64,000 bases of DNA from positions 160,001 through 224,000 of the forward strand of contig CAXXMU010000006.1 of the NCBI GenBank assembly GCA_963667785.2. Reading direction: 5' to 3'. Positions 35,322-51,694 of this stretch are shown here, one piece after another. The DNA comes from Alphaproteobacteria bacterium. GTDB lineage: Bacteria > Pseudomonadota > Alphaproteobacteria > UBA828. Below the pieces are notes generated by a model. It was not told where the DNA came from, did not search any database, and worked only from the letters and a program-made list of their open reading frames with translations. The translations under genes and the position numbers were made by a program. Positions within the stretch are counted from its first letter, which is position 1. Each line of letters starts with the position of its first letter.

Positions 35322-35368
35322 TGTCGTGTGCTGGAGCCGACGATGAATAGTCCCTGCGTGTCCCTTTC

Positions 35369-36436: not shown

Positions 36437-36517
36437 CGGCGGGCGGGTGGACAGGCGCCGCCGCCTCGGCTACCTCACCGGGGCCGGCGGGCGCGACGCG
36501 GGAGGCGAAGCGGCACC

Positions 36518-37582: not shown

Positions 37583-37632
37583 CCCGGGACCGCGCGCACG
37601 CCCGCCGCCGGCCGCACGCCGAGAACGAGAGA

Positions 37633-38631
37633 ATGCGCGACGCCGCTCCGCCCTGCTACGCCGCCAGGCTGAACTCCTTCAAGGTCGGCGCCGAAGCCTA
37701 CTGGCCCGGCAGGAACCGGGTGACGACCGTAGACCTGCTGGAGCGCGCGGCGACGGTGGAGGGTCTCAACGCCGCCGATCTCAACTACCCGGATCACTTC
37801 GAGGGCACGAGCCCGCGGGAGCTCGCCGCCGTGCTCGACCGGCTCGGCATCGGGCTGAACGGCCTCGCCATGCGCTACTACTCGGACCCCGACTTCCGGC
37901 TCGGCGCGCTCACCAATCCCGACCCCGTCCGGCGGCGGAAGGCCATCGACCTCACCCGGCGCGGTCTCGACACCCTCGCCGAGATGGGCGGGACGCTGAT
38001 GACGCTCTGGCTCGGCCAGGACGGCTTCGACTATCCCTTCCAGGCCGACTACGGGCGGATGTGGGACGACACCATCGCGGCCGTTCGCGAGATCGCCGGG
38101 CACAACCCGGAGATCGACATCGCGCTCGAGTACAAGCCCGACGAGCCGCGCAGCTACTCCCTCATGCCCGACGTGGGCACGACCCTGCTCGCGATCCGCG
38201 AGGCGGGGGCGGCGAACCTCGGCGTCACGCTCGACTTCGCGCACGTCCTCTATGCCGGCGAGATGCCGGCGCACGCGGCCTGCCTCGTGGACCGCCACTC
38301 CCGCCTGCTCGGCATCCAGCTCAACGACGGCTACGGCAAGCGCGACGACGGCCTGATGGCGGCGACCGTCCACCCCGTTCAAACCGTCGAACTGCTGGTG
38401 GCGCTGGGCCGCTGCGGCTACGGGCGCGCGATCTATTTCGACACGTTCCCCGACACCGGCGGGCTCGACCCGGTGGCGGAGTGCCGGGCCAACATCGAGA
38501 CCATCGAGCGCCTGCAGGAGGTCGCCGCATCGCTCGCAGATGACGAGCGCCTGGCACGGGCGATCGCCCGACACGACGCGACGGCGAGCCAGCGGATCGT
38601 GGCCGCCGCGCTCTACGGAGGGCGCCGTTGA
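37633..38631 (+). CDS. Xylose-isomerase-like TIM-barrel sugar isomerase
   Basis: GALTNPD, WLGQDGFDY, EYKPDEPR, TLDFAH, LNDG..DDG, YFD metal ligands. Confidence 0.8.
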   Translation: MRDAAPPCYAARLNSFKVGAEAYWPGRNRVTTVDLLERAATVEGLNAADLNYPDHFEGTSPRELAAVLDRLGIGLNGLAMRYYSDPDFRLGALTNPDPVRRRKAIDLTRRGLDTLAEMGGTLMTLWLGQDGFDYPFQADYGRMWDDTIAAVREIAGHNPEIDIALEYKPDEPRSYSLMPDVGTTLLAIREAGAANLGVTLDFAHVLYAGEMPAHAACLVDRHSRLLGIQLNDGYGKRDDGLMAATVHPVQTVELLVALGRCGYGRAIYFDTFPDTGGLDPVAECRANIETIERLQEVAASLADDERLARAIARHDATASQRIVAAALYGGRR

Positions 38632-39584
38632 GCGGCGGGGTGGTCGTCGTCGGCTCCCTGCATCTGGACGTCGTCGTCACCGCGCCGCGCCTGCCCGCCC
38701 CGGACGAGACCGTCATGGGAGAGGCGGTCACGCTCGTGTGCGGAGGCAAGGGCGGCAACCAGGCGGTCGCTGCGAGCCGCCACGGCGCGCCGACCGCCAT
38801 GCTGGGGCGCGTGGGCGGCGACGTCTTCGCGGCAGCGCTCGTCGACAATCTCCGCGCGGCCGGCGTCGACACCTCCCTGATCCAGCAGGACGAGGCGGCC
38901 ATGTCGGGCCTCAGCGTCGCGGTCGTCGGCGCCGACGGGGAATACGGTGCGGTGGTGGTCTCGGCCGCCAATCGAGGGCTCTCTGCGGACGGCTTCGCGC
39001 TGCCGGAGGGCGCCCGCGTCTTCGTCCTGCAGAACGAGGTGCCGGAGGCGGTCAACCGGGCGGTCGCGGCCGAGGCCCGCCGACGCGGCGCGACCGTGGT
39101 GCTCAACGCGGCGCCCATGCGCCCGACGGCGCCGGAGACGATGCACCTCGTGGACCTCCTCATCGTCAACCGCATCGAGGCGGAGGCGTTGTTCGAGACT
39201 CCGATACACGGCGTGAAGGATGCCCTCGCCGCAGCGAAATGGGCCGGGGGCGGATTCGACGGGGAGGCGATCGTCACCCTGGGGAGCGATGGCTTGGTTC
39301 ACCGTGATCGCAGCGGCGCGGTGCGGCACCATGCGGTCCGCCCGGCGCCGGTGGTCTCGGCGCACGGTGCAGGCGACGTGTTCGTGGGCGCGCTCTCCGC
39401 CCGTCTGGCCGTCCCCGCCGCCATGGACGAGGCCATCGCCGACGCCCAGGCTGCCGCCGCCCGCTTCGTGTCGACCCCCCTCGGGGAGCGGGGACTATCG
39501 ATCGCGGCCGGCCCCGCTTCGGTTGTTTCTCGGGCACCTTCAGCCCCTCGCGCCGCCCCAGGCGCTCGACCCGCTTGTCGTTGA
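38628..39584 (+). CDS. PfkB/ribokinase-family sugar kinase; C-terminal tail read through an IS scar
   Basis: GGKGGNQAVA, VLQNE, LNAAP, VNRIEA, VTLG, SAHGAGD. Confidence 0.85.
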   Translation: MSGGVVVVGSLHLDVVVTAPRLPAPDETVMGEAVTLVCGGKGGNQAVAASRHGAPTAMLGRVGGDVFAAALVDNLRAAGVDTSLIQQDEAAMSGLSVAVVGADGEYGAVVVSAANRGLSADGFALPEGARVFVLQNEVPEAVNRAVAAEARRRGATVVLNAAPMRPTAPETMHLVDLLIVNRIEAEALFETPIHGVKDALAAAKWAGGGFDGEAIVTLGSDGLVHRDRSGAVRHHAVRPAPVVSAHGAGDVFVGALSARLAVPAAMDEAIADAQAAAARFVSTPLGERGLSIAAGPASVVSRAPSAPRAAPGARPACR

Positions 39585-39591
39585 CCTGCCG
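39508..39591 (-). pseudogene. IS3-family transposase OrfB fragment
   Basis: Minus strand translates RQVNDKRVERLGRREGLKVPEKQPKRGR, matching the conserved IS3 OrfB segment VNxKRVERIWRREGLKVPxKQPKRGRL. Confidence 0.75.
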
Positions 39592-39667
39592 CGGGCAGTC
39601 CTACAGAGCGTGGATGACGTTCGCGGCGAGAGAGACGCAGTAGACCGCGAGACGGATATGGCAGACC

Positions 39668-41839
39668 CTATGCCCTGTTCGGGTAGGTCGGGTGCCCCCA
39701 GATGTGCTTCTCGCTGATGAAGGGAAGCGGATACTGCGGATTGTCCGACTCGAATTCGCGGCCTAGCCGGTGCCCTTCGAACACGGATAACTGGATGAAG
39801 CGCGGCGTGTGGCAGTCCCCCACGTGATAGACCGCCTGCACGTCGTTTTCAGGCCAGTCGTCCTTCCGCGCCTTGAGCGATGTAAACAGCTCGGTTCTCG
39901 ACTGGCGCGCCGTACAGAGGATCACGGTATCGCATTCCAGCATCGTCGTTTCGGTGCCGAGGCGCCTCGGCACGTGGCCTTTTCGCGGCGGCAGCTCGAT
40001 ATCGGCACCGTCGCGATAGGCATACGCGATCTCGACCTTGACCGTGTTGTCGACGGCAAGGGATTCGACCCAGTGAAGCGGGTAGCACTGGATCTCCTTC
40101 TCGTAGAGAAGCCGCTGCAGGTTGGGCCCCTCAAGGGTGTTCTGGCAGAACGGGGCGACCTCGTTGAACTGGGTGACGACGGAGACCTGCTTGCCTCTCT
40201 CCGCCATGATTTCGGCCATCGCGACGCCGGTGAAGTAGCCGTCGCCGTCCAGGATCACCACGCGATCACCGAGTTCCTTTCCGTTCATCACCTGCTCGGG
40301 CGTGCAGAACTGCGGCGCTTCGGCATCGGCGCCCTCGATCGGTCCGAAGTTGACGGCGTTGAGCCCATCCGAGGCCCAACGGGCGCCGACGGCGATCACG
40401 ACCTTGTCAGCTCCGTAGGCAAGCACGCTGTCGGCCGTCATGTCGTCCACGCCGGTGTGCACCTCGACGGTCCTGAGCTTGTCGAGCTGGGTCTGCCGGT
40501 AGCTGATGATGCGGCCCCATTCCGCAAGCCCCGGGTAGCGCATGACCTGGCGGATGTGCCCTCCGATCTCGTCTTCGCGCTCGCGCAGGTGAACGTCGTA
40601 GCCTCGCTCGCCGAGCACGCGCGCGCATTCCATCCCTGCGGGGCCGGCACCCACGACCAGGACCGAACAGGGATTCTCCGCCCTTTCGAACTCTTCGGGA
40701 TGCCAGCCCCGCCGGTACTCCTCCATCGCCGTCGCGTTCTGGGTGCAGATGAGCGGGGCCTCCAGGTTGAACTGTGAGACGCAGATGTTGCAGCCGATGC
40801 ACTCCCGGATGTCGTCTGTCCTGCCTTCCCTGATCTTGCGTGGCAGAAACGGATCGGCGATCGACGGCCGCGCGGCGCCGATCAGGTCCGCCTCGCCGGC
40901 GCGGATGATGCGCACCATGTCGTCCGGGCTGGTGACCCGTCCCACGCCGACTACGGGGACATTCGTCACTTCTTTGACCGCCTTGGTGGCCCAGGTCTGA
41001 TAGGCGGGCTCGAAGAAGCGCGAGGGGCCGGCGTCGTTGCCCCACTCCATGAAGTACGAGATTTTGATGTTCCAGAGATCGCACACGCCTTCACGCGTGA
41101 CCAACTCCACGAACTTGAGGCCCTCCTCCAATTCCAGCCCCGCCGGCCCCAGCAAATTGTCGATCGCGATGCGCGTGCCGACGGCGACGCGATCGCCCAC
41201 GGCGCGCTTGAGAGCCGCCATGGTCTCCAGCCAGAAGCGGGCGCGGTTCTCGAACGAGCCGCCCCAGCGGTCGGTGCGCTTGTTGTACATCGGCTGGAGA
41301 AACTGGGTCGGAAGCGAGGAATCCGAGCCGACGATGTCGATGTAGTCGAAGCCCGCGTCCTCGGACAGTTTGGCGGCATCGACATACATCTGAATGAGCT
41401 CGCGGATGTCGTCTTCGTCGCACTCGTGGCAGTAGTTCTGATAGGCCGTTTCCGACGGCATCTGGCTGGGGCCGCGGGCGATCCCGAGGGTTTCGCGCAC
41501 CGGCGCGTGCGCGCCGCCGTACCAGAGCTGAATACCGGCCAGAGCACCGTGCCGATGCACGCTCTCGGTCGTGTGTCGCAGATTGATGACGTCGCCTTCG
41601 TCCCATAGACGCACGCCGATGTGGGGCGTGTCGTCGGATTCCGGGCTGATTGCGCAGTATTCGACGCAAACGACTCCCCAGCCGCCCTCGGCCTTCATCG
41701 CGCGAAAGGCAGCCTGAGCGCCGGGTCTCTGGGAGCCTGCGCCGTTGCAATGAGGAACCTGGAAGAATCGATTGGGAGCCTGCTTTGGCCCTATTCGAAC
41801 GGGCTCGAACAGGACGTCATACGTCGGATTGCGCGTCAT
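39668..41839 (-). CDS. Trimethylamine/dimethylamine/histamine dehydrogenase-family iron-sulfur flavoprotein (variant active site)
   Basis: QVPHC (covalent FMN Cys), KAEGGW, EWGNDAGPSRF, CIGCNIC..CTQN 4Fe-4S ligands, EEYRRGWHPE, VVGAGPAG. Confidence 0.88.
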   Translation of the reverse strand: MTRNPTYDVLFEPVRIGPKQAPNRFFQVPHCNGAGSQRPGAQAAFRAMKAEGGWGVVCVEYCAISPESDDTPHIGVRLWDEGDVINLRHTTESVHRHGALAGIQLWYGGAHAPVRETLGIARGPSQMPSETAYQNYCHECDEDDIRELIQMYVDAAKLSEDAGFDYIDIVGSDSSLPTQFLQPMYNKRTDRWGGSFENRARFWLETMAALKRAVGDRVAVGTRIAIDNLLGPAGLELEEGLKFVELVTREGVCDLWNIKISYFMEWGNDAGPSRFFEPAYQTWATKAVKEVTNVPVVGVGRVTSPDDMVRIIRAGEADLIGAARPSIADPFLPRKIREGRTDDIRECIGCNICVSQFNLEAPLICTQNATAMEEYRRGWHPEEFERAENPCSVLVVGAGPAGMECARVLGERGYDVHLREREDEIGGHIRQVMRYPGLAEWGRIISYRQTQLDKLRTVEVHTGVDDMTADSVLAYGADKVVIAVGARWASDGLNAVNFGPIEGADAEAPQFCTPEQVMNGKELGDRVVILDGDGYFTGVAMAEIMAERGKQVSVVTQFNEVAPFCQNTLEGPNLQRLLYEKEIQCYPLHWVESLAVDNTVKVEIAYAYRDGADIELPPRKGHVPRRLGTETTMLECDTVILCTARQSRTELFTSLKARKDDWPENDVQAVYHVGDCHTPRFIQLSVFEGHRLGREFESDNPQYPLPFISEKHIWGHPTYPNRA

Positions 41840-42018
41840 CGCCTTGCCCTCGCATGTATCGCCTGCATCCCACGGCATCCAAGCATGACGCGGCCCGCAT
41901 TCGGATGCAAAATGCCGACCGGGAGAAAGCGCCGGTACAGCCTCGACCATCCGGCGATCCCCCGGGGCCGGCAGTCGTACGACGCGACCGCGCCGATCCC
42001 TGGGAAGGAGCTTGAACG

Positions 42019-43341
42019 ATGGCCCGCTCCAACGACGATCTGAGCCAGCGCGACACCGCGGCGATTGCGGAGATTCAGAAGCTCCGCTTCAACCCGCTGG
42101 CGGCCCGCGGCGGCAGCGGCTCCTACCTCACCAGCGAGGACGGCCGGCGCATCCTCGATCTCTCGGCGTCCGCGACCGCCGCGAGCCTCGGCTACGCCCA
42201 CCCGGCAGTGACCGAAGCGGTGACCAGGGCGCTCACCGACATGGCGGGTGCGAGCCTCTTGATGTACCCGAACGAGTCGGCCGCCGCGCTCGCCGAAGCG
42301 TTGCTCCAGGTCACGCCGGGTAGTGGCGAGCGGCGCGTCTGGTTCGGCCATTCCGGCTCGGACGCGAACGATGCCGCGGCCCGCGTGCTGGAGGCGGCCA
42401 CCGGCCGCCCCCGCTTCATCTCGTTCATCGGCTCCTATCACGGCGGGGTCGCAGGCTCGATGGCGATCTCGGGCCATACCGCGATGACCCACACCCTGCC
42501 GCGACCGGGCCTGGTGCTGCTGCCCTATCCCGACCCGTACCGGCCGCGCTTCTCGGCGGACGACGTGCTCGACATGCTGGACTACCAGTTCGAAACCACG
42601 TGTCCGCCGGAACAGGTCGCCGCCGTCTTCATCGAGCCCATCATGTCCGACGGCGGGCTCATCGTGCCGCCCGCAGGCTTCCTGAAGGCGCTGGAGGAGC
42701 GCTGCCGGCGACACGGCATTCTCACGGTGCTCGACGAGGTCAAGGTCGGCTGCGGGCGCAGCGGGCTGTTCCACGCCTTCAGTCACGAGGGCCTGGAGCC
42801 CGACATGGTGGTGCTCGGCAAGGGGCTGGGCGGCGGCCTGCCGCTCTCCGCCGTGATCGGGCCCGCGGACGTTCTGGACCACCGCCCCGCCTTCGCCATC
42901 CAGACCACCGGAGGCAATCCGGTCTGCACCGCCGCGGGCCTCGCCGTGCTGCGCACCATTCTCGACGAGGACCTTCCCGATCACGCCGCGCGCATGGGCA
43001 AGCAACTGGCGGACGGCCTGCGGGCGCTGGGCGAACGACACGCGATGATCGGCGATGTGCGCGGCCGCGGGCTCGCGATCGGTGTCGACCTGGTGCGGGA
43101 CCGCGAGAGCAAGGCGCCGGTCGACGCCACCACCACGGCCAAGGTGATCCTGCGCGCCTACGAGCTTGGCGCGAGCTTCATCTATGTCGGGCTTGCCGCC
43201 AACGTGCTGGAAATCACGCCACCCCTGAACTTGAGCGACGCAGAACGCGGCGAGGGGCTTGCCATCATTGACCGGGCCCTCACCGATGTCGCCGAGGGCC
43301 GCGTCTCCGACGAGGCGGTGCAGGCCTACATGAACTGGTGA
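42019..43341 (+). CDS. Class III PLP aminotransferase (GabT-like)
   Basis: SGSDAN, SYHG, IEPIMSDGG, DEVKVG, LGKGLGGG, GDVRGRGL; AAGGAG RBS. Confidence 0.9.
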   Translation: MARSNDDLSQRDTAAIAEIQKLRFNPLAARGGSGSYLTSEDGRRILDLSASATAASLGYAHPAVTEAVTRALTDMAGASLLMYPNESAAALAEALLQVTPGSGERRVWFGHSGSDANDAAARVLEAATGRPRFISFIGSYHGGVAGSMAISGHTAMTHTLPRPGLVLLPYPDPYRPRFSADDVLDMLDYQFETTCPPEQVAAVFIEPIMSDGGLIVPPAGFLKALEERCRRHGILTVLDEVKVGCGRSGLFHAFSHEGLEPDMVVLGKGLGGGLPLSAVIGPADVLDHRPAFAIQTTGGNPVCTAAGLAVLRTILDEDLPDHAARMGKQLADGLRALGERHAMIGDVRGRGLAIGVDLVRDRESKAPVDATTTAKVILRAYELGASFIYVGLAANVLEITPPLNLSDAERGEGLAIIDRALTDVAEGRVSDEAVQAYMNW

Positions 43342-43498
43342 GCGACCGCCCCGCGCGGCGCGCATTGACGGGACTGAGGACGTGACATTGGTGAGACGTC
43401 CGGGCTACCGTCGGATTCGATGCTTCGAGCATCATTTCCCCAACGAACAAGAAAATATCGTCGGTACAACTGACGTGAACAAGAAAGGGAGGTCAACG

Positions 43499-44893
43499 AT
43501 GTCGATAATCAACAAGCTTGCCCTCGGAGCCGGCGCCGCTGCGCTGGCCGCCGTTCTGGCCGGGGCGCCCCTGGATGCCAACGAGGCGCACGCCTGGTCG
43601 CTGGAGGAGGCGGCCAAGCCCTATGCCGGAACGGAAGTCCGCGGCATCTGCGACGGTTACGCGCCGTGCATGTCCTATGTCGCGCTGACCGACGAATTCG
43701 AGCAGCTCACCGGCATCAAGGTGAACTTCGAGATCGCCGACCTCGCGGCGATTCAGACCCAGTTCCTGACGGACCAGATCACCGCATCGCAGTATTACGA
43801 TATGGTCGAGGTGGTATCGTTCTCCACGGGCGTGTTTCCGGCCCATGGTTTCGTGCACGACTGGTCCACGTTTACCGACAATCCGGCGCTGAAGGATCCG
43901 GACGTCAATTTCGCGACTGACCTCGTCCCGGCGCTCTACGAAGTTTCGACTCTTCACGACGGCAATCTCTACAGCGTGCCAACAAAGTACGTGCTGGCCT
44001 TCATGGTCTACCGCAGCGACCTCGTAACCGACGAGGAGAAGGCCAACTTCGAAGCGGCGAACGGCTACGCCATGCCGCTACCGCCGACCACCTGGCAGCA
44101 CTATCACGACCTCGCCGCCTTCTACACGCGCGAGAAGGGCGAGACGCTGGCGGGGCAGGTGCTGGAGAGCGACTTCTACGGCACGATCGTGCCCTTCAAG
44201 CGCCACCTCGCCGTGCTCTACGACTACGAGCGCATCCTGATCAACATGGGCGGCCGCTATCTGGACGAGAACGGCAACGTCGCGCTCGACGAAGGCGATG
44301 CCGCGGTCAAGGCGCTCGAGTTCATGCTCTCGCTCCGGCCCTACTCGAACCCCGGCTACATGGAAGCGACCTGGGACGAAGAGTACTCGGAGATGTGCGC
44401 CGGCAATCTGTTCACCATGTTCACCTGGGGCGATACCACGCCCTACCTCGAGATTCCGGAAGACTGCCCCGGTTCGGCCGGAAAGATGACCTACTATGCG
44501 CATCCCGGCATGGGGCTCTCCATCGCCGAGGCCAACAACTGGATGATTCCGAAGAGCGCCCAGAACCCGGAAGCCGCGTTCCTCTTCGCCCAGTGGATCA
44601 ACCGCAAGGACATCCAGGCCCGGACCATGCCGGCGGGCGGCAATCCGACCCGGAGCGACGTCTACGCAATGCCCGAGTGGAGCGACCCGAACTGGGTGAA
44701 CATCCAGCGCGACCAGCTCTATCGGTGGCTTGAGGAGAACGACAAGCTGCTGCCCCGTCCGAATCCGCCGACGTGGCTCGCCTGGACGGAGATCTTCACG
44801 GAAGAGCTCTCCAACGCCGGCGCCGGGAACCAGGATGCGGCGACGACAATCGCCAACATCGCGCAGCGGATGCGCGACGTGGCGGAGCAATAA
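43499..44893 (+). CDS. ABC substrate-binding protein (family 1)
   Basis: Sec signal ending AHA; FEQLTGIKV, MVYRSDL, PPTTW, IPKSAQNPEAA; GGAGG RBS. Confidence 0.85.
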   Translation: MSIINKLALGAGAAALAAVLAGAPLDANEAHAWSLEEAAKPYAGTEVRGICDGYAPCMSYVALTDEFEQLTGIKVNFEIADLAAIQTQFLTDQITASQYYDMVEVVSFSTGVFPAHGFVHDWSTFTDNPALKDPDVNFATDLVPALYEVSTLHDGNLYSVPTKYVLAFMVYRSDLVTDEEKANFEAANGYAMPLPPTTWQHYHDLAAFYTREKGETLAGQVLESDFYGTIVPFKRHLAVLYDYERILINMGGRYLDENGNVALDEGDAAVKALEFMLSLRPYSNPGYMEATWDEEYSEMCAGNLFTMFTWGDTTPYLEIPEDCPGSAGKMTYYAHPGMGLSIAEANNWMIPKSAQNPEAAFLFAQWINRKDIQARTMPAGGNPTRSDVYAMPEWSDPNWVNIQRDQLYRWLEENDKLLPRPNPPTWLAWTEIFTEELSNAGAGNQDAATTIANIAQRMRDVAEQ

Positions 44894-45101
44894 GGGCGGG
44901 GGTGTCGCAGCCCAGGGAAACCTGCTTCGGGGGGCCGAACCGGCCCTCGGGACCCCGACCTGGGCTCGCAGGATAGGCTGAGTGCCGTCCCCGGTGTTGC
45001 GCCCGGCAACGCCGGGGACCGGCTGCGTTGACGGCGGCGCAGCGTCGCTGTGAGCGTGGGCTCGGGTCAAGCCGTCCCTGAACTCCGAGAAGGGCCTTGT
45101 C

Positions 45102-46622
45102 ATGGCAGACGTCCATTACGACGCGATCATCGTCGGCGCGGGTCATAACGGGCTGGTCGCCGCCTTCTACCTCGCGCGCGCCGGACGGAAGGTGCTGCTC
45201 TGCGAGCGCCGGTCGTTCGTGGGCGGTGCCTGCGCCACCGAAGAGCTGTTCGATGGCTATCGGGTGTCGTCCTGTGCCTACGTGATGTGGAAGCTGGAGC
45301 AAAAGGTGCGCGACGACATGGGGTTGGACAGGCGCGGCCTGACCATGCATCTGATCGACCCGCCGGTGTTCTTTCCCTACGAAGACGGTTCGCACGCGTT
45401 CCTGCACTACGACATGGATCGCACGGTGGAATCGATCGCGCGGCTGAACCGCCATGATGCCGCGCGATTTTCCGACTGGGTGGACCTCTGGACCCGGGCA
45501 ACGGGGCTGGTGCAGCCCTACATGCTGACCGATCCGCCGACACTCTCCGACGTCTGGGAACGCGCCAAGGCAAGCGGGGACGAAGCCGTGCTGGAGCGCT
45601 TTCTCACCAGCTCGCTCGTCGATCTCGCGGCCGACCACTTCGAGGACGAGCGCGTGCGCGCGATGATGCTCTACGTGCAGGATATCGCCGATCCCCATGC
45701 GCCGGGCAGCGCCTGGGCCGAGGTCTTTTTCCAGTTCGGCGCCGCGGGCGGACACGGCTACTACGTCGTCGAAGGGGGCATGGGCTCGATCACGCAATAC
45801 ATGGCCGATGCCGTGACCGAGCAGGGCGGCGAAATCCGTTGCGACGCGCCGGTCGCGCAGGTCTTGGTGGAGAACGGCGTGGCCAGCGGTGTGCGCCTCG
45901 AATCGGGCGAGGAGATCAGCGCAGGCATCGTGGTGTCGAACGCCGATCCCAAGCGCACCTATCGCACCCTCTTTTCCGCCGATGACCTGCCCGGCGACCT
46001 CGCCAGGCGCGTGGAACGGCTCAAGACCGGAACAGGCTACTTCAAGTTCCACTGCGTGATGGACGACGTTCCGGATGTCTCGGGCTACCTCGATGGGTAC
46101 GACGGCCCGCCCATCTCCTACATCATGATCGCGCCCAGCCTCGACCACTACGCGCGGGCGGGGGCTGAGATGCGCGCAGGCGTGCCCTGCAGCGAGCCGA
46201 TCTGCCACCTTCAGGTGCCGACGCTCTACGACGGGACCCTGACCGATCGCGACGGCCATATCTGCTCGATCTGGGGGCTCTATGCGCCGGCGCACCTGGC
46301 GGAGGGCACGTGGGATGAGCGCCGCGAGGAGGTGGGCGAAGGCGTCATCGATTACGTGACGCGGTTCGTCCCCAACTTCCGCTCCGCGATTCGCGAATGG
46401 ATGTTCATGAGCCCGTGGGACATCGAGCAGCGCGCCGGCATCACCGACGGCGCGATCCGCCATCTCGACGTGGTGCCGAGCCAGTTCCTGAACGGGCGGC
46501 AAAGCTACGACACGCCGATCGGGAACTTCTATCTCTGCGGCGGCGGTACCCATCCGGCCGGTGAGGTCACCGGCGCGCCGGGCCACAATGCCGCGCATCA
46601 CATCTTGCGGACCAACGCCTAG
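45102..46622 (+). CDS. PYROXD2-like (phytoene-dehydrogenase superfamily) FAD oxidoreductase
   Basis: YDAIIVGAGHNGLVAA..ERR..GGACATEE, VVSNADPKRT, YLCGGGTHPAGEVTGAPGHNAA. Confidence 0.85.
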   Translation: MADVHYDAIIVGAGHNGLVAAFYLARAGRKVLLCERRSFVGGACATEELFDGYRVSSCAYVMWKLEQKVRDDMGLDRRGLTMHLIDPPVFFPYEDGSHAFLHYDMDRTVESIARLNRHDAARFSDWVDLWTRATGLVQPYMLTDPPTLSDVWERAKASGDEAVLERFLTSSLVDLAADHFEDERVRAMMLYVQDIADPHAPGSAWAEVFFQFGAAGGHGYYVVEGGMGSITQYMADAVTEQGGEIRCDAPVAQVLVENGVASGVRLESGEEISAGIVVSNADPKRTYRTLFSADDLPGDLARRVERLKTGTGYFKFHCVMDDVPDVSGYLDGYDGPPISYIMIAPSLDHYARAGAEMRAGVPCSEPICHLQVPTLYDGTLTDRDGHICSIWGLYAPAHLAEGTWDERREEVGEGVIDYVTRFVPNFRSAIREWMFMSPWDIEQRAGITDGAIRHLDVVPSQFLNGRQSYDTPIGNFYLCGGGTHPAGEVTGAPGHNAAHHILRTNA

Positions 46623-46650
46623 GGCCCCGGCCTGTCCCGAGGCGCCTCGC

Positions 46651-46746
46651 ATGAATGCATCGTTCCCGGATCAGGCGAGAGTGGTGATCGTCGGCGCGCC
46701 GTCGAAGGCGATGGAGGCGCGGCGCGGCGACGCGGGCTCGCCATGA
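46651..46746 (+). pseudogene. Vestigial N-terminus of a GcvT-family (sarcosine/dimethylglycine dehydrogenase-like) gene
   Basis: GAGG RBS + MNASFPDQARVVIVGA then unrelated tail; stop overlaps the permease ATG (ATGA). Confidence 0.5.
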
Positions 46747-47672
46747 GCAACGGTGCGTCGAGCGGAGGCGTCCTGGCCGATTCCGCGTCGACCAGAACCT
46801 TCCTCTGGGTCTGCATGGGCCCGGTTCTGGTGTTCCTGCTCATCGTGGCGATCGCGCCCATGACGCTCGCGATCGTGGACAGCCTCCGCGAGCTCTCGCT
46901 CACCAGCCTGACGAAGCGGGGCCAGTTCATCGGGCTCGACAACTACCGCGATCTGATCGCAACCGATTCGAAGTTCTACGCGGCGATCGCGCACACGGCG
47001 ATCTTCATGGCCGTCGTGGTGCCGGTGGAGTTCGTGCTCGGCCTGATGATCGCGCTGTGGCTCAATCGCGAGTTCGCCGGCCGCCGGCTGGTGCTGACGA
47101 TCATCATGATCCCCACCATGATCGCACCGGTGGTGGTGGGCATGATCTGGCGTTTCTTCCTGATGCCGAGCTTCGGTGTGCTCACCGTCTACCTCAACCG
47201 GATCGGGCTGTTCGAGGACACGAGTGTCTTCTCGGGCCCGGTGACCGCGTTCGGCGCCCTGATGATCATCGACATCTGGGAGTGGACCCCCTTCATCATG
47301 CTGATCATGCTGGCGGGGCTTTCGGCGGTCCCGAGAGCGCCGATTGAGGCGGCGACCCTGGACGGGGCGTCGCGCTGGCAGATTCTGCGCCACATCGAGC
47401 TCCCGATGCTGGTGCCGCTGATCATCATCGCGCTCATGCTGCGCGCAATCGACGCGAGCAAGATCTTCGACACGATCCATGTGCTGACCGGCGGCGGGCC
47501 GGGAAACGCAACGGAAGTCATCGCCACCTTCGCCTATCGCACCAATTTCCTGACGTGGAACCTGGGCTACGGTGCGGCGGTCTGTCTGGTGCTCGCGTTC
47601 GCGTCGCTCGTGATGGCGGCGCTCTTCTACAAGATCGTGAGCGGCAAGGCGCCGACTCAGGAGGCGGCCTAG
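46743..47672 (+). CDS. ABC permease (MalF-like)
   Basis: DIWEWTPF, EAATLDGA, TGGGPG. Confidence 0.9.
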   Translation: MSNGASSGGVLADSASTRTFLWVCMGPVLVFLLIVAIAPMTLAIVDSLRELSLTSLTKRGQFIGLDNYRDLIATDSKFYAAIAHTAIFMAVVVPVEFVLGLMIALWLNREFAGRRLVLTIIMIPTMIAPVVVGMIWRFFLMPSFGVLTVYLNRIGLFEDTSVFSGPVTAFGALMIIDIWEWTPFIMLIMLAGLSAVPRAPIEAATLDGASRWQILRHIELPMLVPLIIIALMLRAIDASKIFDTIHVLTGGGPGNATEVIATFAYRTNFLTWNLGYGAAVCLVLAFASLVMAALFYKIVSGKAPTQEAA

Positions 47673-48488
47673 ATGCTGCGCCGCAACTGGGTCACCTTCC
47701 TCGTTCCTCTGGTCCTCTTGCTGGGCGTCGCGCTGATTCCCTATATCTGGATTCTGCTCGCGAGCTTCAAGGAACGGGTGGACTTGATTACGCCCGATCC
47801 GAAGTGGGTATTCGAGCCCACGGTCGTCAATTATGTCGAAATCTTCGGAAGGGGCTTCGACGTGTTTCTCCTGAACTCGATCATTATCGGGTTCTCGAGC
47901 ACCGCGTTGACCGTGATTGTCGGCACCATGGCGGCCTACGGCTTCTCCCGCTTCAAGATCCCGGCGGGGAATCACCTGTTCTTCCTGATCCTGGCGACGC
48001 GGCTCGGGCCGCCGGTCGCCTACGCCTTGCCGATGTACCTGGTTTTCGACGCCTTCGGCCTCGTCAACAGCCATTTCGCGGTCATACTCGCCCACGCGAC
48101 CTTCAATCTCGTCCTCGTGGTCTGGATGATGCGGTCGTTCTTCAACGACGTCCCGCGCGAGATCGAGGAGGCCGCTTACCTGGATGGTTGTGGGCATTTT
48201 CGGGTGTTCTGGCGCTTCGCGATCCCGATGACGTACCCCGGCCTCGTGGCGGTCATGATCTTCGTGTTCATCTTTTCGTGGAACGAGTTGCTGTTCGCCC
48301 TGATTCTCTCAGGCGGGGAGACACGAACGCTCCCGGTGATGATACCGTCCCTCGTGCTGCACACAGGCACGCTCTGGGGGCAGGTCGCCGCAGCCTCGAT
48401 CATTCAGAGCATCCCCGTGCTCATCTTCATCTTCTTCATTCAGAAGAAGCTGGTGCAGGGCCTGACCTTCGGCGCGGTCAAGGGCTGA
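47673..48488 (+). CDS. ABC permease (MalG-like)
   Basis: PREIEEAAYLDG, SWNE, GLTFGAVKG. Confidence 0.9.
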   Translation: MLRRNWVTFLVPLVLLLGVALIPYIWILLASFKERVDLITPDPKWVFEPTVVNYVEIFGRGFDVFLLNSIIIGFSSTALTVIVGTMAAYGFSRFKIPAGNHLFFLILATRLGPPVAYALPMYLVFDAFGLVNSHFAVILAHATFNLVLVVWMMRSFFNDVPREIEEAAYLDGCGHFRVFWRFAIPMTYPGLVAVMIFVFIFSWNELLFALILSGGETRTLPVMIPSLVLHTGTLWGQVAAASIIQSIPVLIFIFFIQKKLVQGLTFGAVKG

Positions 48489-48522
48489 GGCACGCGCGCC
48501 TCCCGCGGCGGTCGGGAGAGCC

Positions 48523-49602
48523 TCAGGCGCGCAGGCGCTCGCCCGTTTCGGTGTCGAACGCGAGCACCTTCACGGGATCGGTGAAGAGCCTGACGGTATC
48601 GCCGTAGCGGATCGCATCGTTGCGGATCGTCTTGGCGGTAAGGGCCGGCCCCTCGGACGAGAGCTCGAGGATCGTCTCGGCACCCAGATGCTCGACGGCC
48701 TCGACCCGACAGTCCAGCCCGACCGCGTCGCCATCGGATCCGGGAGCGAGGAATTCCGGGCGGATACCGAGCGTGACGGCTCGCCCCTGCGCCGCAGCGT
48801 GGGTCGGCGGCAGCCCGAGTGCGAGTTCGCCGGCGCGAAAGACCGGCGCGCCGTCGGAGGGCTCCACCACGCCGTCGATCAGGTTCATGGTCGGGCTGCC
48901 GATGAAGCCCGCGACGAACATGTTGTCCGGGTTGTCGTAGACGGCGAGCGGCGTGCCGATTTGCTGGATGCGTCCTTCGTTCATGACGACGATGCGATCG
49001 CCCATGGTCATCGCCTCGGTCTGATCGTGGGTGACGTAGATCATCGTCGCGGAGAGCCTGTGATGAAGCTTGATCAACTCGCCGCGCATCGCCATGCGCA
49101 GCTTGGCGTCCAGATTGGACAGCGGCTCGTCGAACAGGAAGACCGCCGGATCCCTCACGATCGCCCGCCCCAGAGCGACCCGCTGCTGCTGCCCGCCCGA
49201 CAGGGTCTTGGGCTTGCGCGACAACTCCTCGGTGATGCCGAGGATCGTCGCCGCGTCCCGAACGCGCCGGTCGATCTCGTCGCGCGGCACCTTCTTCAGT
49301 TTCAGGGCGAAGCCCATGTTGTCGGCGACCGACATGTGCGGGTAGAGGGCGTAGGACTGGAACACCATCGCGACATCGCGGTCCTTGGCGTGGACGCTGG
49401 CGACGTCGCGATCGCCGATGTAGATGCTTCCCGAGGTGACCGCCTCCAATCCAGCGATCATGCGCAGGCATGTCGTCTTGCCGGAGCCCGAGGGACCGAC
49501 CAGGACCACGAACTCGCCGCTTCCGATGCTGAGATCGACGGCGTCGACGGCGGCCACGGCGCCGAAGCGCTTGGTGAGGCCTTCGAGCCGCACCGCGCTC
49601 AT
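48523..49602 (-). CDS. MalK-like ABC ATP-binding protein, convergent on its permeases
   Basis: GPSGSGKT, LSGGQQQR, FDEPLSNLDAKLR, FIGSPTMN. Confidence 0.92.
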   Translation of the reverse strand: MSAVRLEGLTKRFGAVAAVDAVDLSIGSGEFVVLVGPSGSGKTTCLRMIAGLEAVTSGSIYIGDRDVASVHAKDRDVAMVFQSYALYPHMSVADNMGFALKLKKVPRDEIDRRVRDAATILGITEELSRKPKTLSGGQQQRVALGRAIVRDPAVFLFDEPLSNLDAKLRMAMRGELIKLHHRLSATMIYVTHDQTEAMTMGDRIVVMNEGRIQQIGTPLAVYDNPDNMFVAGFIGSPTMNLIDGVVEPSDGAPVFRAGELALGLPPTHAAAQGRAVTLGIRPEFLAPGSDGDAVGLDCRVEAVEHLGAETILELSSEGPALTAKTIRNDAIRYGDTVRLFTDPVKVLAFDTETGERLRA

Positions 49603-49966
49603 CACAGGGCTCCCAGGTAGATCATCTCGGCGGCCACGAAGAGTGCCACACCCCAGAAGCGGACCTCGCCGGGCGTGAGCCATCGCTTGCGTGTGTTCCA
49701 GATTCCCAGAAGAAACTGAAACGGCGCGCAGACGGCAAAAACGATGATGTGCTCCAGCACGGCCGGGCCTACGGAGTGTTCTTGTTCGCCCGGAGGACAA
49801 ACAGGAACGGCACGCTCGCGATCAGCGGGAAGGCGAACAGGCCGATCGGCACGACGATGAAAGGCGAAATGTCGGCCTCGATCATCGCGCCGCAGCCGAC
49901 GACGACCATGAAAGAATAGAGAACTGCCCAAAGTGAGGCGCGAAGGTTGGGGCGATCGAGAGGCAT
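49602..49966 (-). pseudogene. Small membrane protein split by an apparent frameshift
   Basis: GAGG RBS + MPLDRPNLRASLWAVLYSF..LRANKN ends at TAG 49769; a hydrophobic continuation HSVGPAVLEHIIVF..MIYLGAL in another frame ends at the ATPase start; 365 nt span. Confidence 0.55.
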
Positions 49967-50279
49967 GTTGCGAGCACCTCGCCCGGTGCGGCTCGGCGTG
50001 CCGGCGGGCGCTTGTTCGGCCGCGCCGACCATAGCATCGGACCCTTGTACGGTATACCGCCACGGCTCGGACGCCCCACGGAACACCTCGCCGCCGCATC
50101 GTGCGTTGCTACGCTGCCCCCCACCGGCCTCCCTGTGCCCGACGGACAGAGACCTGAGCTCATTTCCGCCAGGGCGCGCCAGTTGTCCGTGGAGTCCGGC
50201 AAGAGGATGAACACGGTCGAGGCCGTGCATCAGGCGCCCGCCGGCGGCGCGCGCGACGCGCAGGACACGGAGTCCAGGC

Positions 50280-50394
50280 GGGATTCGGCGGGACGGGCGG
50301 GATTATCCCAGGTCTCCATCCCAAGACCCCCCGAGGCGGGATTCGCCGGGATAGCAAGGGATTCCGTTGGGATATCGGGGCGGGTTTCCGGGAT
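50280..50394. repeat. Helically phased GGGAT pentamer array with central palindrome
   Basis: GGGAT/GGGAC at 50280, 50290, 50299, 50338, 50348, 50358, 50369, 50390; inverted ATCCC at 50305 and 50318. Confidence 0.7.
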
Positions 50395-50527
50395 GAAGCC
50401 TGCGATCGCGAGATGGCGTCGGGCGACGTGCCCCCTCGCCCCGTCTGACCCGATCCGTTCGTTCACGCGCTGCATGGCGCGATCGTCGCACCCGCGCCCA
50501 GCGCCGTGCACCGCGCAATGGTCCGGG

Positions 50528-50606
50528 GTGTCGCTCGCGCCCGAAGGGTCGCGAGCGCGGAAGAAGAGTCCGCGCCCGAGGGATCGCGAGCGCGAGAGAA
50601 GAGTCC
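50528..50606. repeat. GC-rich hairpin repeat (copy 2 of 2), tandemly duplicated
   Basis: GTGTCGCTCGCGCCCGAAGGGTCGCGAGCGCGGAAGAAGAGTC followed by CGCGCCCGAGGGATCGCGAGCGCGAGAGAAGAGTC. Confidence 0.75.
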
Positions 50607-50638: not shown

Positions 50639-51694
50639 CTAGATTCGGAGGCGCTCTCTCGTGATGGCGATGAGACGCGCCATGCCGTGCGGCTCGAGGA
50701 TCAGGATCACGATGATGAGGCCGCCGAAGATGATCACCTCGATGTGCTTGGCGAGGTCGACGGCCAGGTCGATGCCGAGGATCGGGTTCAGGTTGGTGAG
50801 GAAGATCGGCAGGATGGTGATGAAGGCGGCGCCGATGATGGAGCCGGAGATCGAGCCGAGGCCGCCCACGATGATCATGAAGAGCACGAGGAAGGAGACG
50901 TTGACGTCGAAGGCGATGGTCTCGGCGCTGCCTAGGTAGAGGAAGACGAAGAGCGCGCCGGCGACGCCGCAGAGGTAGGAGCTCACGCCGAAGGCGAGCA
51001 GCTTGGTGCGGAGCAGCGGGATGCCGACGATCTCGGCGGCCACGTCCATGTCGCGTACAGCCATCCAGGCGCGGCCGAAGCGGCTCCGCATCAGATTCCA
51101 GGAGAAGAAGACGAAGACCGCCAGCAAGACGAGCGCCACCAGATAGCGCACCTCGGCAGCGGCCTCGGGGCCTGTGATCATGACGCCGGCGAAAGTGCGG
51201 GGCGGCGCCGTGATCGTGCCCGACGGGTTGTCGTTGTAGAACCACGGCACCCGGTTGAAGAGCCAGATCAGGAAGAACTGCGCGGCCAGCGTCGCCACCG
51301 CCAGGTAGAAGCCCTTGATGCGCAGGCTCGGCAGACCGAAGAGGATGCCGACGCCGGCGGCGAAGAAGCCCGAGATGAAGAAGACGGCGATGATGTCGAG
51401 CCCGGGCCACGCGGTCGTCATCTTGAAGGCGGCATAGGCGCCGACGGCCATGAACCCGCCGGTGCCGAGGGAGAGCTGGCCGGCGAAGCCGGTGAGCAGA
51501 TTGAGCCCCAGCGCCGCGAGCGCGAAGATCAGGAACGGGATCAGGATCGCCTGGAGCCAGTACTCGTTCGCCAGCGTCGGCACGGCGAAGAGCGCGAGCA
51601 GCGAGATCACGGTCACGAAGACCGTGTTGATCGTGCGCGAGCGGGTCGCGAAGAAGGTGGCGTAGAGGTCTGTCAAATGAGTGAGCACGGTCAC
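50639..51694 (-). CDS. LivM-like ABC permease
   Basis: LGLNLLTGFAGQLSLG, LRIKGFYLAVATLA, GRAWMAVRDMD, IVGGLGS. Confidence 0.9.
   Translation of the reverse strand: MTVLTHLTDLYATFFATRSRTINTVFVTVISLLALFAVPTLANEYWLQAILIPFLIFALAALGLNLLTGFAGQLSLGTGGFMAVGAYAAFKMTTAWPGLDIIAVFFISGFFAAGVGILFGLPSLRIKGFYLAVATLAAQFFLIWLFNRVPWFYNDNPSGTITAPPRTFAGVMITGPEAAAEVRYLVALVLLAVFVFFSWNLMRSRFGRAWMAVRDMDVAAEIVGIPLLRTKLLAFGVSSYLCGVAGALFVFLYLGSAETIAFDVNVSFLVLFMIIVGGLGSISGSIIGAAFITILPIFLTNLNPILGIDLAVDLAKHIEVIIFGGLIIVILILEPHGMARLIAITRERLRI

Follow-up and report, generated by a model that had tools for sequence, protein, structure and literature searches.

The window is the whole stretch of alphaproteobacterial DNA that was analysed, 64,000 nucleotides long. 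Within it, the genes of the block at 39668-49966 are genuine and lie where a sequence-only reading had placed them. Their layout and their family and subfamily assignments, with the features around them, are as follows.

39668..41839, minus strand: TMADH-family FMN / 4Fe-4S / ADP-binding amine dehydrogenase homologue with a variant active site (723 aa; Pfam Oxidored_FMN, OYE-like_second_a-b, Pyr_redox_2)
41840..42018, no strand: divergent intergenic region of 179 bp, separating the TMADH-like gene from the PLP-enzyme operon
42019..43341, plus strand: PLP enzyme with class III fold, placed in the alpha-amino-epsilon-caprolactam / amino acid amide racemase subfamily (440 aa; Pfam Aminotran_3)
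43499..44893, plus strand: periplasmic solute-binding protein (SBP) serving an ABC importer of CUT1 type (464 aa, signal peptide included; Pfam SBP_bac_8, SBP_bac_1)
45102..46622, plus strand: PYROXD2-like / CrtI-superfamily FAD oxidoreductase (506 aa; Pfam Amino_oxidase, NAD_binding_8)
46623..46742, no strand: gap of 120 bp between flavoprotein and permease 1, with no detectable gene remnant
46743..47672, plus strand: ABC permease 1, UgpA/MalF-like (Pfam BPD_transp_1; best NCBIfam match UgpA, 102 bits, under cut-off)
47673..48488, plus strand: ABC permease 2, UgpE/MalG-like (Pfam BPD_transp_1; best NCBIfam matches GlcU, 112 bits, and MalG, 105 bits, under cut-offs)
48523..49602, minus strand: ABC ATPase of MalK/UgpC type, containing OB and TOBE domains; its gene converges on the permease genes (Pfam ABC_tran, OB_MalK, TOBE_2)
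49602..49966, minus strand: upstream of the ATPase, a pair of short hydrophobic ORFs of 65 and 53 codons, each in its own frame
50280..50394, plus strand: GGGAT array, in a non-coding stretch upstream of the ATPase unit

The gene content that had been read from the sequence stands, from the TMADH-like gene to the opposite-strand ATPase, except for two items. A GcvT stub had been placed at 46623-46742, but none of 10 GcvT queries matches there at E<=10, nor does any Pfam family match the 31-aa ORF at 46651-46746 at the same threshold. An IS3 scar had also been proposed, and no transposase or integrase family appears in the 12 flanking ORFs, of 24 scanned. The GGGAT array is confirmed: of the 110 GGGAT/ATCCC sites in the window, 9 are packed into these 115 nt, where the next densest 200-nt stretch of the window holds three, and 7 of the 28 GGGATW sites fall there as well. 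It comprises repeat families D2, D3 and D7, and has no Rfam match. The two short hydrophobic ORFs, whose end at 49966 is where the block had been taken to end, have no Pfam match at E<=10 and might be a single small membrane protein or a gene broken by a frameshift.

The true start of the TMADH-like gene is MTRNPTYD, and the upstream ATG at 41950 is not a start. In the divergent intergenic region, the RBS GGAAGGAG precedes the ATG at 42019; the region has three ATCCC sites, and a simple scan of 41840-42018 found no sigma-70-like site. The SBP ORF opens at 43382, and the start that fits its 464-aa homologues is 43499. Third-codon-position G+C is 0.81-0.90 in most block genes versus 0.90-0.96 in most of the window, and total G+C dips to 0.64-0.67 over most of 32-50 kb (0.69-0.71 at 36-40 kb) versus about 0.69-0.75 upstream. 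This dip is the sole support for calling the block an island. No tRNA genes were found. Directly upstream there is another CUT1 cluster, of sugar type, which includes an isomerase and a ribokinase-like kinase.

We tentatively read the block as one uptake-and-conversion locus for a nitrogen-containing solute, arranged in three transcription units. It is also possible, if rather doubtful, that two unrelated units happen to be neighbours: a variant amine dehydrogenase that stands alone and relies on a housekeeping ETF, and a CUT1 operon for a sugar- or amino-sugar-like solute, with no N-alkyl amine involved. The layout bears on both. On the plus strand the order is PLP enzyme, SBP, flavoprotein and permeases, and this interleaving of enzyme and transporter genes on one strand argues for a single locus. 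So does the TMADH-like gene diverging across only 179 bp, and so does the lower third-position G+C of most block genes, common to both putative units; these last two points also speak against unrelated neighbours. On the other hand, the gaps inside the operon are 120-208 bp and allow separate promoters, and there is no ETF gene in the window and no regulator in the block, all of which counts against a single locus. The second CUT1 cluster directly upstream favours unrelated units, since it makes the region look like a patchwork of transport loci.

The TMADH-like protein has the three-domain architecture of Methylophilus methylotrophus W3A1 TMADH (PDB 1djn / 2tmd) and aligns with it over the full length, at 802 bits to 1djn, versus 535 bits to histamine dehydrogenase. 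It keeps Cys30, Tyr60, Trp105, Arg222, Trp264, Asp267 and the four Fe-S cysteines. Unlike W3A1 TMADH, it has Tyr169 replaced by Val, His172 by Asp, Tyr174 by Ser, Trp355 by Phe and Ser74 by Gly, and its active-site signature is CYGWVDSRWDF versus the canonical CYSWYHYRWDW. The exact canonical signature is found in 57 of the best 120 database matches. The variant one is common to all 13 of the closest full-length relatives (clusters at at least 65% identity), and because of this the protein, as judged from its sequence, falls in a separate subclade rather than among the TMA or DMA dehydrogenases. The earlier assignment to TMADH is right for the family but finds no support for the TMA/DMA type, given the replacement of Trp355 and of the Tyr169-His172 pair.

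The kept residues, together with the common variant signature, argue for a single locus. Elsewhere, TMADH-like genes have partners of their own (Fe-S, ETF, GcvT, aldehyde dehydrogenase), which favours unrelated units. Both an Asp172 variant in Shinella (57% identical) and the canonical enzyme of Azoarcus adjoin Fe-S/ETF genes, with GcvT also present in Azoarcus, unlike the window's gene, which adjoins no ETF, Fe-S or GcvT gene. Neither the Shinella nor the Azoarcus locus has a racemase or a window-type flavoprotein, and this counts against the single locus.

The sequence-only reading had proposed a (methyl)amine island, in which a TMADH demethylates, the PYROXD2-like enzyme oxidises further and a class III aminotransferase acting on omega-amines removes the primary amine (for example of N-methyl-lysine or a methylated diamine). 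We now find this unlikely. TMADH family membership and the Pfam Aminotran_3 match of the PLP enzyme favour it, but the TMADH-like enzyme is without Tyr169, His172 and Trp355, the GcvT stub is not there, and the nearest characterised relatives of the PLP enzyme are racemases, not transaminases. Racemases and epimerases make up all 12 of its best-scoring solved relatives, led by the amino acid amide racemase of O. anthropi (6gio, 645 bits); 5m46 scores 484 bits and the ACL racemase of Achromobacter obae (2zuk) 467 bits, versus about 220 bits for GABA transaminases. On NCBIfam, every match is under its family cut-off. The protein encoded at 42019-43341 aligns with the 6gio, 2zuk and 5m46 racemases over its whole length, and by inspection about two-thirds of the positions aligned with 6gio match. 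The two have in common the stretches SYHG, SDGG, DEVKVG and GKGLGGG, which hold what we take to be the catalytic residues Tyr137, Asp210, Lys241 and Lys267. Among solved proteins it is closest to the racemases, and we predict it to be of racemase type.

Aminocaprolactam is the lactam of lysine, a point of general chemistry that speaks for the methylamine island. The racemase scores argue for a single locus, and plain sugar catabolism offers no obvious role for an alpha-amino amide racemase, which weakens the case for unrelated units. As outlined in PMC7431475, the substrates of the amino acid amide / ACL racemase family are aminocaprolactam and amino acid amides. Unlike known racemases, the window's putative racemase has a new setting, with a CUT1 SBP and a PYROXD2-like flavoprotein. 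Rhizobiales homologues at 55% identity are found alongside an RpiR regulator, isochorismatase-family hydrolases, a GS-like gene, a formylglutamate amidohydrolase and a branched-chain-type ABC system, that is, a different ABC family. These amidohydrolase-type neighbours and the different transporter, and the lack of any amidase gene at the window's locus, count against the single locus.

The importer resembles CUT1 systems (MalEFGK, UgpBAEC, SmoEFGH) in its ATPase, at 453.7 bits over the NCBIfam UgpC cut-off of 432, in its UgpA/E- and MalF/G-like permeases and in its SBP fold, and it does not belong with the polyamine or betaine importers, which is a further point against the methylamine island. 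Unlike those systems, it has its ATPase on the opposite strand, behind the two small hydrophobic ORFs. The SBP has no NCBIfam match; its homologues form 45 clusters at at least 40% identity and then fall to 26-28%, and its subfamily is rare, with a fold of carbohydrate type, in a group of its own apart from solved CUT1 SBPs. The Foldseek neighbours listed for its AF2 model (pLDDT 90.7) are all sugar SBPs, at 15-20% identity and TM 0.65-0.73. This favours unrelated units and counts against the single locus, but such model-based neighbours neither prove nor exclude an amine ligand.

The flavoprotein has 4658 homologues, the closest 90% identical, and its close relatives form 13 clusters at at least 68% identity. 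The TMADH-like protein, the flavoprotein and the SBP each have such a small set of close relatives, which argues for a single locus and against unrelated neighbours. PYROXD2 likeness rests on the Pfam make-up (Amino_oxidase, DAO, NAD_binding_8) and on Atlas cluster names, the nearest clusters being called 'Pyridine nucleotide-disulfide oxidoreductase domain-containing protein' in 7 of the 10 rows listed. That the flavoprotein is instead a carotenoid or isoprenoid desaturase or ketolase in a chance neighbourhood is very improbable. It has the same fold and FAD-binding N-terminus as CrtI, CrtD and CrtO, the best Foldseek match of its AF2 model (pLDDT 88) is the carotenoid desaturase 4rep (TM 0.78), with CrtI 4dgk also matched, and its best NCBIfam match is CrtO. 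But the scores are far under the cut-offs (CrtO 235 versus 1000 bits, crtI_fam 110 versus 238), identity to the carotenoid enzyme structures is only 16-18%, no other carotenoid gene is found in the window, and the gene sits between transporter genes. The many invariant polar residues of the family alignment would also argue against a purely lipid substrate. By the NCBIfam cut-offs, then, the protein of 45102-46622 is not a carotenoid enzyme, in line with the sequence-only reading.

Human PYROXD2 is an orphan mitochondrial flavoprotein. The published links that had been invoked for it are in print, in outline: mQTL results tie its locus to levels of TMA, DMA and N2-acetyl,N6,N6-dimethyllysine, which favours the methylamine island. 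For the window's cluster, ties to methylamines and to PYROXD2 are still unproven. The sequence-only reading had asked whether the genes co-occur elsewhere, and the distant loci gave no sign of it: in 76 distant flavoprotein loci (flavoproteins 30-48% identical to the window's) there is not one TMADH-like gene or window-type SBP, which counts against the single locus and, for the TMADH-like gene, favours unrelated units. What these loci do have alongside is GcvT (13 of 76), Rieske oxygenases (16 of 76), and BHMT-like and DAO genes. These N-demethylation-type neighbours, found in other clades of the family, fit amine C-N chemistry, which counts for a single locus, and they give a fresh lead to N-methyl-amine metabolism. 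In the tree, the window's flavoprotein clade is apart from the clades beside GcvT or Rieske genes, a point against the single locus; the GcvT context is therefore not directly transferable.

A related arrangement is conserved in a Steroidobacteraceae genome (L075) and on a Fuscovulum plasmid (L077), in clusters that join a PLP enzyme of class III fold to an ABC importer, a pair of PYROXD2-like genes, GcvT and Rieske oxygenases. They favour the methylamine island, and the window has the same pairing of PLP enzyme with PYROXD2-like flavoprotein and importer. Unlike the window, they have GcvT and Rieske genes beside two flavoprotein paralogues, which fall in another clade and are only 33-35% identical to the flavoprotein of the window. 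The importer of L077 is annotated as polyamine-type, and the PLP enzyme of L075 is GSA-aminomutase-like, of another subfamily than the window's, which tells against the methylamine island. Finally, an 83% TMADH-like match and an 87% flavoprotein match are on contigs of equal size (4,062,941 nt), as are a 59% Asp172/Phe355 TMADH-like variant and a 63% SBP match (1,743,436 nt). These coincidences count for a single locus, but contigs of this size are Mb-sized replicons, and say nothing about adjacency.

To return to one locus for a nitrogen-containing solute, its catalytic steps and their order are inferred, and so are the class of substrate and any functional tie of the TMADH-like gene to the operon. 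The CUT1-type importer, with its rare SBP, two permeases and MalK/UgpC ATPase, would bring the compound in. The PLP racemase would then act on an alpha-amino-carbonyl group, in an amide, lactam or ester, and invert its alpha-carbon, and the PYROXD2-like FAD enzyme would oxidise a C-N bond, either in the solute itself or in an intermediate. Last, the divergent TMADH-like FMN/4Fe-4S enzyme, whose pocket may be wider (Tyr169Val, Tyr174Ser, Trp355Phe) and may have gained a carboxylate (His172Asp), would dealkylate the nitrogen of a secondary or tertiary amine, releasing an aldehyde and passing electrons to an electron-transfer flavoprotein encoded elsewhere. That the locus is catabolic is plausible but unproven. 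Likeliest as substrates would be alpha-amino amides or lactams bearing an N-alkyl group, or sugar- or polyol-linked amines, and the importer, the racemase-type enzyme and the two flavoenzymes probably take up and convert a nitrogen compound.

The block at 39668-49966 lies in a chromosomal window with a G+C of ~0.70 and housekeeping genes including uvrC, typA and moeA. Its gene set, which we checked by ORF listing, codon-position G+C and family scans, is as follows.

Genes of the block, with coordinates in the window
39668-41839, minus strand: TMADH-family gene; start (MTRNPTYD) at 41839, from the comparison with TMADH
between the TMADH-like and PLP-enzyme genes: divergent spacer of 179 bp
42019-43341, plus strand: PLP enzyme of the class III fold
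43499-44893, plus strand: periplasmic solute-binding protein (SBP); start 43499 fits the 464-aa homologues
45102-46622, plus strand: PYROXD2-like flavoprotein
46743-47672 and 47673-48488, plus strand: two permeases
48523-49602, minus strand: MalK/UgpC-type ATPase, convergent with the permeases
49602-49966, minus strand: two short, strongly hydrophobic ORFs (65 and 53 codons) in different frames, directly upstream of the ATPase

An upstream ATG at 41950 was considered as the start of the TMADH-like gene, and was dropped in favor of 41839 after the TMADH comparison. The first four plus-strand genes are separated by 157, 208 and 120 bp. A simple scan reports no promoter-like sites, and no terminator-like sites within the plus-strand run; the three terminator-like sites that it does report are each outside the operon. 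Neither of the short ORFs at 49602-49966 has a Pfam match, and they could be a single small membrane protein broken by a frameshift, or two peptides. Family scans of the window found no ETF gene or regulator inside or adjoining the block, and there are no Rfam matches at E<=1 in 31-52 kb.

The TMADH-like protein has the three-domain architecture of the TMADH / histamine dehydrogenase superfamily (FMN, 4Fe-4S and an ADP-binding domain), that is, an OYE-like FMN barrel, an Fe-S cysteine cluster, and pyridine-nucleotide-disulphide-like domains. Pfam reports Oxidored_FMN (274 bits), OYE-like_second_a-b and Pyr_redox_2, and over its whole length the protein can be aligned to Methylophilus TMADH (1djn; 802 bits), including the CxxCxxC...C motif, with histamine dehydrogenase next at 535 bits. 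Cys30, which we take to be the site of covalent FMN attachment in TMADH, is present: PHCNGAG aligns to PHCIGAG, and the column is a Cys in every untruncated row. Also kept are the four Fe-S cysteines, Tyr60, Trp105, Arg222, Trp264 and Asp267. On the other hand, the window enzyme differs from 1djn at five positions that we assume to be catalytic or substrate-binding: it has Val in place of Tyr169, Asp in place of His172, Ser in place of Tyr174, Phe in place of Trp355, and Gly in place of Ser74.

Which dehydrogenase is it then? The aromatic bowl that presumably surrounds the trimethylammonium head in TMADH (EC 1.5.8.2), formed by Tyr60, Trp264 and Trp355, is incomplete, as the third residue is a Phe. 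From the Tyr169-His172-Asp267 triad plus Tyr174, which we consider diagnostic of TMADH proper (EC 1.5.8.2), Asp267 is the one residue kept. Nor do we find the pattern that we assume for dimethylamine dehydrogenase, with Gln60, Thr74 and Phe105 replacing Tyr, Ser and Trp; the window enzyme has Tyr60, Gly74 and Trp105. Because of these residue differences at the signature columns, the window enzyme is, as far as its sequence predicts, a member of the superfamily but neither TMADH nor dimethylamine dehydrogenase. Thus the TMADH homologue proposed earlier holds as a superfamily assignment, but not as either of the two named enzymes.

We read eleven signature columns in the best 120 database matches. 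The exact canonical TMADH set is found in 57 of these 120 best matches, while the Tyr169-His172 pair is absent in 40, most of which (36/40) have an Asp or Glu at 172. Among full-length matches with at least 65% identity to the window enzyme, each of the 13 has Ile/Val169, Asp/Glu172 and Phe355. Two plasmid enzymes were read as controls: the one from Azoarcus, whose gene adjoins GcvT, Fe-S and ETF genes, carries the canonical TMADH set, and the one from Paracoccus aminovorans carries Gln60/Thr74/Phe105, the dimethylamine dehydrogenase pattern given above. A Shinella enzyme is a further Asp172/Phe355 variant, followed by Fe-S/ETF domains. The eleven-residue signature sorts TMADH-family types in the compared loci L081 (8995-11202), L082 (7818-16752) and L080 (8995-14329). 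For the window enzyme, the substitutions suggest a wider pocket with a new carboxylate, and from this we infer a larger substrate, perhaps one that carries a hydroxyl or a second positive charge.

The PLP enzyme had been proposed to be a class III aminotransferase. The fold family is confirmed (Pfam Aminotran_3, 280 bits), but a transaminase identity is not: the 12 best solved relatives are all racemases or epimerases, and neither the NCBIfam models nor the solved structures provide a transaminase equivalog or a transaminase as nearest relative. Each NCBIfam model scores below its cut-off (the best one 348 vs. 608).

Scores of the PLP enzyme against solved relatives
Ochrobactrum anthropi amino acid amide racemase (6gio): 645 bits
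5m46: 484 bits
aminocaprolactam racemase (2zuk): 467 bits
Ala/Ser and broad-spectrum racemases: 277 and 263 bits
isoleucine 2-epimerase: 258 bits
GABA transaminases: ~220 bits

The nearest characterized relatives, the aminocaprolactam / amino acid amide racemases, align over the full length. By inspection, about two-thirds of the aligned positions are identical to 6gio, and the two proteins agree fully or almost fully in the stretches GSYHG, SDGGL, DEVKVG and GKGLGGGLP. For this subfamily we take Lys267 to be the PLP lysine, Tyr137 the second base, and Asp210 and Lys241 the substrate site. The PLP enzyme is closest to the aminocaprolactam / amino acid amide racemase subfamily, and that activity is predicted for it. 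A methylamine scheme based on a transaminase, as in the sequence-only reading, has the Aminotran_3 fold in its favor and these racemase relatives against it; it is a less likely reading, and in our judgment quite improbable.

We know of no natural role for the aminocaprolactam / amino-acid-amide racemases, and none surfaced in our literature search. For this enzyme family, PMC7431475 describes racemization of aminocaprolactam and of alpha-amino acid amides, and a title among its references mentions racemization of esters by the O. anthropi enzyme. Racemase-like genes 55% identical to that of the window are found in a conserved Rhizobiales cluster (L079, L083 and L084, on Brucella anthropi, Sinorhizobium and Shinella replicons). 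The setting of this cluster is unlike that of the window, with an RpiR regulator, two isochorismatase-family hydrolases, a GS-like gene, a formylglutamate amidohydrolase, and a branched-chain-type ABC importer. The cluster could point to an amide or a lactam as the natural substrate of the racemase family. The branched-chain-type ABC system downstream of the block (50639-55694) was compared to the Rhizobiales one and rejected as its orthologue.

The flavoprotein belongs to a large family, with at least 4658 relatives among the 8000 candidates scored, the closest 90% identical. The nearest Atlas clusters are named after PYROXD2, and the label PYROXD2-like is taken from these automatic cluster names. 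A carotenoid role needs to be considered, given that the structure nearest to the predicted model (pLDDT 88) is the carotenoid desaturase 4rep (TM 0.78), together with CrtI. The next structural matches are nicotine, cyclohexylamine, monoamine and putrescine oxidases. The NCBIfam scores are far under the cut-offs (CrtO 235 vs. 1000, crtI_fam 110 vs. 238), and we found no crt genes in the window. We regard a carotenoid role as very unlikely, and by the NCBIfam cut-offs the expectation that the flavoprotein would not group with the carotenoid enzymes is upheld.

The proposal of an ABC importer was correct, and the importer is of the CUT1 type. The ATPase scores 453.7 bits to the UgpC subfamily, above the cut-off of 432, and has the OB_MalK and TOBE_2 domains. 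The SBP is of family 1 (Pfam SBP_bac_1 and SBP_bac_8), and it comes with two MalF/G-like permeases whose best scores are to UgpA/E, GlcT/U and MalG, all under the equivalog cut-offs. The SBP itself has no NCBIfam match. Its homologues form 45 clusters at >=40% identity, all of ~464 aa, and the next match drops to 26-28%. For the SBP model (pLDDT 90.7), the top Foldseek matches are solved carbohydrate SBPs at 15-20% identity, with ligands such as maltose, trehalose, sophoro-oligosaccharide, acarbose and sulfoquinovose; no polyamine or betaine binder is named among the matches listed. The modeled fold class says that the ligand would be sugar-like, and the fold does not name it.

A second CUT1-type ABC system precedes the block at 32163-39584 (plus strand). 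It has an SBP, two permeases and a UgpC-type ATPase (507 bits), after which come a TIM-barrel gene resembling xylose/rhamnose isomerases and a PfkB kinase of the ribokinase-like kind. The whole looks like a sugar utilization cluster, and 84 bp separate it from the 3' end of the TMADH-like gene.

The observations of the sequence-only reading are largely right, and its interpretation partly right. Tentatively, and short of an even chance, we favor reading the block as one locus, in which the importer would bring a nitrogen compound into the cell, the PLP enzyme would racemize its alpha-amino-carbonyl center, and the two flavoenzymes would cleave C-N bonds with an ETF encoded elsewhere. Nearly as likely is that the importer operon and the TMADH-like gene are neighbors with no relation to each other. 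Co-occurrence in other genomes had been anticipated, and we did not see it in the distant flavoprotein loci and plasmid regions covered. A genome scan using an alignment of 30 flavoprotein sequences gave at least 76 loci; the flavoproteins of the 76 listed are 30-48% identical to that of the window. In tblastn searches of these 76 distant loci with the window proteins, a class-III-fold enzyme is found in 8/76, and the TMADH-like gene and the SBP in 0/76 each.

In the plasmid collection, DNA and protein searches found no close relative, the best identities being 36% for the flavoprotein, 30% for the SBP, 57% for the TMADH-like enzyme and 55% for the racemase-type enzyme, and the gene combination is absent from the seven plasmid regions examined. 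In favor of one locus, close relatives are few (13 full-length clusters at >=65% for the variant TMADH-like enzyme, 13 at >=68% for the flavoprotein, and the 45 of the SBP), and the sizes of the contigs carrying homologues coincide twice, at 4,062,941 nt (a TMADH-like homologue of 83% and a flavoprotein homologue of 87% identity) and at 1,743,436 nt (a TMADH-like Asp172/Phe355 variant of 59% and an SBP homologue of 63%), with no coincidence among short contigs; this means at best the same Mb-sized replicon, not adjacency. These small sets and size coincidences are weak hints of co-occurrence. Our literature search turned up no relevant paper that places TMADH with an aminotransferase cluster.

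Among the non-coding features, we confirm the GGGAT array: of the 110 GGGAT/ATCCC sites of the window, nine fall within 115 nt (GGGAT(T/A), 50280-50394), and any other 200-nt stretch has at most three. The units are mostly GCGGGATTC-like and irregularly spaced, and they lie within 670 bp of non-coding DNA upstream of the small-ORF/ATPase unit. The array has no Rfam match, and it could be an operator array. The spacer between the TMADH-like and racemase genes has ATCCC sites at 41867, 41957 and 41996, a density (three per 200 nt) also seen elsewhere. Two 35-nt direct repeats in tandem, 89% alike, are found at 50536-50605, just downstream of a branched-chain-type permease gene, and they overlap a minus-strand terminator-like hairpin.

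We did not recover the GcvT stub suggested to lie between the flavoprotein and the first permease (46623-46742). Ten GcvT query proteins taken from related loci were used, and none (0/10) matches there at E<=10; the 31-codon ORF in it has no Pfam match at E<=10 either. Weak GcvT matches at 50216-50397 on the minus strand (best E 0.012, 13 identities in 50 positions, with an internal stop) were judged to be chance or compositional. As for the IS3 scar, none of 24 stop-to-stop ORFs, 12 of which flank the block, has a transposase or integrase match (Pfam rve / HTH_Tnp, E<=0.1), a test that a strongly decayed scar could escape. The G+C is 0.64-0.67 over most of 32-50 kb (0.69-0.71 at 36-40 kb), and ~0.69-0.75 upstream; third-position G+C is 0.81-0.92 for the genes of 32000-50000 vs. 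0.90-0.96 for most other genes in the window. In this low-G+C stretch we found no mobility genes, and tRNA genes are absent from the whole window. With neither a transposase or integrase signal nor a tRNA gene, we find no support for an IS3 scar or for a mobile island, and what is left of the island is the G+C dip.

Other clades of the flavoprotein family offer a different lead. We scanned with Pfam the nearest ORF on either side of the flavoprotein in the 76 loci listed (136 ORFs), built local profiles from those neighbors, and scanned the flanks with them; the flank counts thus include the training loci.

Gene types next to the flavoprotein in the 76 loci
GCV_T (GcvT): nearest ORF in 9 loci, flanks of 13/76
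second paralogous flavoprotein: nearest ORF in 9 loci
Rieske oxygenase: nearest ORF in 5 loci, flanks of 16/76
homocysteine S-methyltransferase-like: nearest ORF in 2 loci, flanks of 5/76
DAO: nearest ORF in 2 loci, flanks of 4/76
class-III-fold enzyme: nearest ORF in 2 loci, flanks of 9/76
amino acid permease: nearest ORF in 4 loci
any of GcvT, Rieske, S-methyltransferase-like or DAO: flanks of 26/76

GcvT, Rieske, S-methyltransferase-like and DAO genes are gene types of N-demethylation pathways. The GcvT-bearing loci span several phyla. As an example, L075 (5674-14374, a Steroidobacteraceae MAG) and L077 (7641-19560, a Fuscovulum plasmid) have one common architecture: a class-III-fold PLP enzyme, two PYROXD2-like paralogues, a GcvT-family protein, one or more Rieske oxygenases, and an ABC importer. 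In Acidobacteriota and Dormiibacterota, several loci have a shorter form, GcvT with the two paralogues (L042, L061, L062, L069, L070, L072 and L073). The L075/L077 cluster is a candidate N-methyl-amine locus, better supported than that of the window.

Neighbors of the N-demethylation type fit the human genetics. The published passages on the human PYROXD2 locus tie it to the levels of TMA, DMA and N2-acetyl,N6,N6-dimethyllysine, and describe a negative correlation between PYROXD2 expression and urinary TMA. Our searches found no literature on the function of bacterial PYROXD2 homologues, or on such a gene context for the PYROXD2-like family.

In a FastTree tree of 130 family members, the GcvT-linked proteins form one clade (22 rows, support 99), and the window flavoprotein is in a separate one (45 rows, support 100), at whose five loci GcvT/Rieske-type nearest neighbors are absent. 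The class-III-fold enzyme of L075 is GSA-aminomutase-like, a subfamily other than that of the window enzyme, and the L075 pair of PLP enzyme and PYROXD2-like protein was therefore rejected as equivalent to the window's pair. Because the clades are separate and the L075 PLP enzyme is of another subfamily, the lead applies to the family and not directly to the window locus.

A more specific version of the one-locus reading, unlikely by our own estimate, would be a new route for an N-alkylated alpha-amino amide or lactam (such as a methylated lysine or ornithine lactam), or for a sugar- or polyol-linked amine. A new Asp172/Phe355 branch of the TMADH family and the PYROXD2-like flavoprotein would each cleave a C-N bond, and the aminocaprolactam-type racemase would supply the right enantiomer. 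The GcvT, Rieske and BHMT-like neighbors of the other clades agree with such a route, which, if true, would for the first time open the PYROXD2 family to biochemistry, as amine oxidoreductases that carry out N-dealkylation.

At the level of the family, the GcvT, Rieske and BHMT-like context in several phyla points the PYROXD2-like enzymes towards N-methyl-amine metabolism, and L075 and L077 are the better-supported loci for testing that role. The window, for its part, has in one small locus three enzyme groups without a known natural substrate: a TMADH-family branch in which the active site is rebuilt, the aminocaprolactam / amino-acid-amide racemases, which are familiar mainly from biocatalysis, and the PYROXD2-like flavoproteins, with an orphan enzyme as their human member. 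Since the SBP is in the same operon, the substrate could be found by direct ligand screening, and its identity would give functions to all three enzyme groups together.
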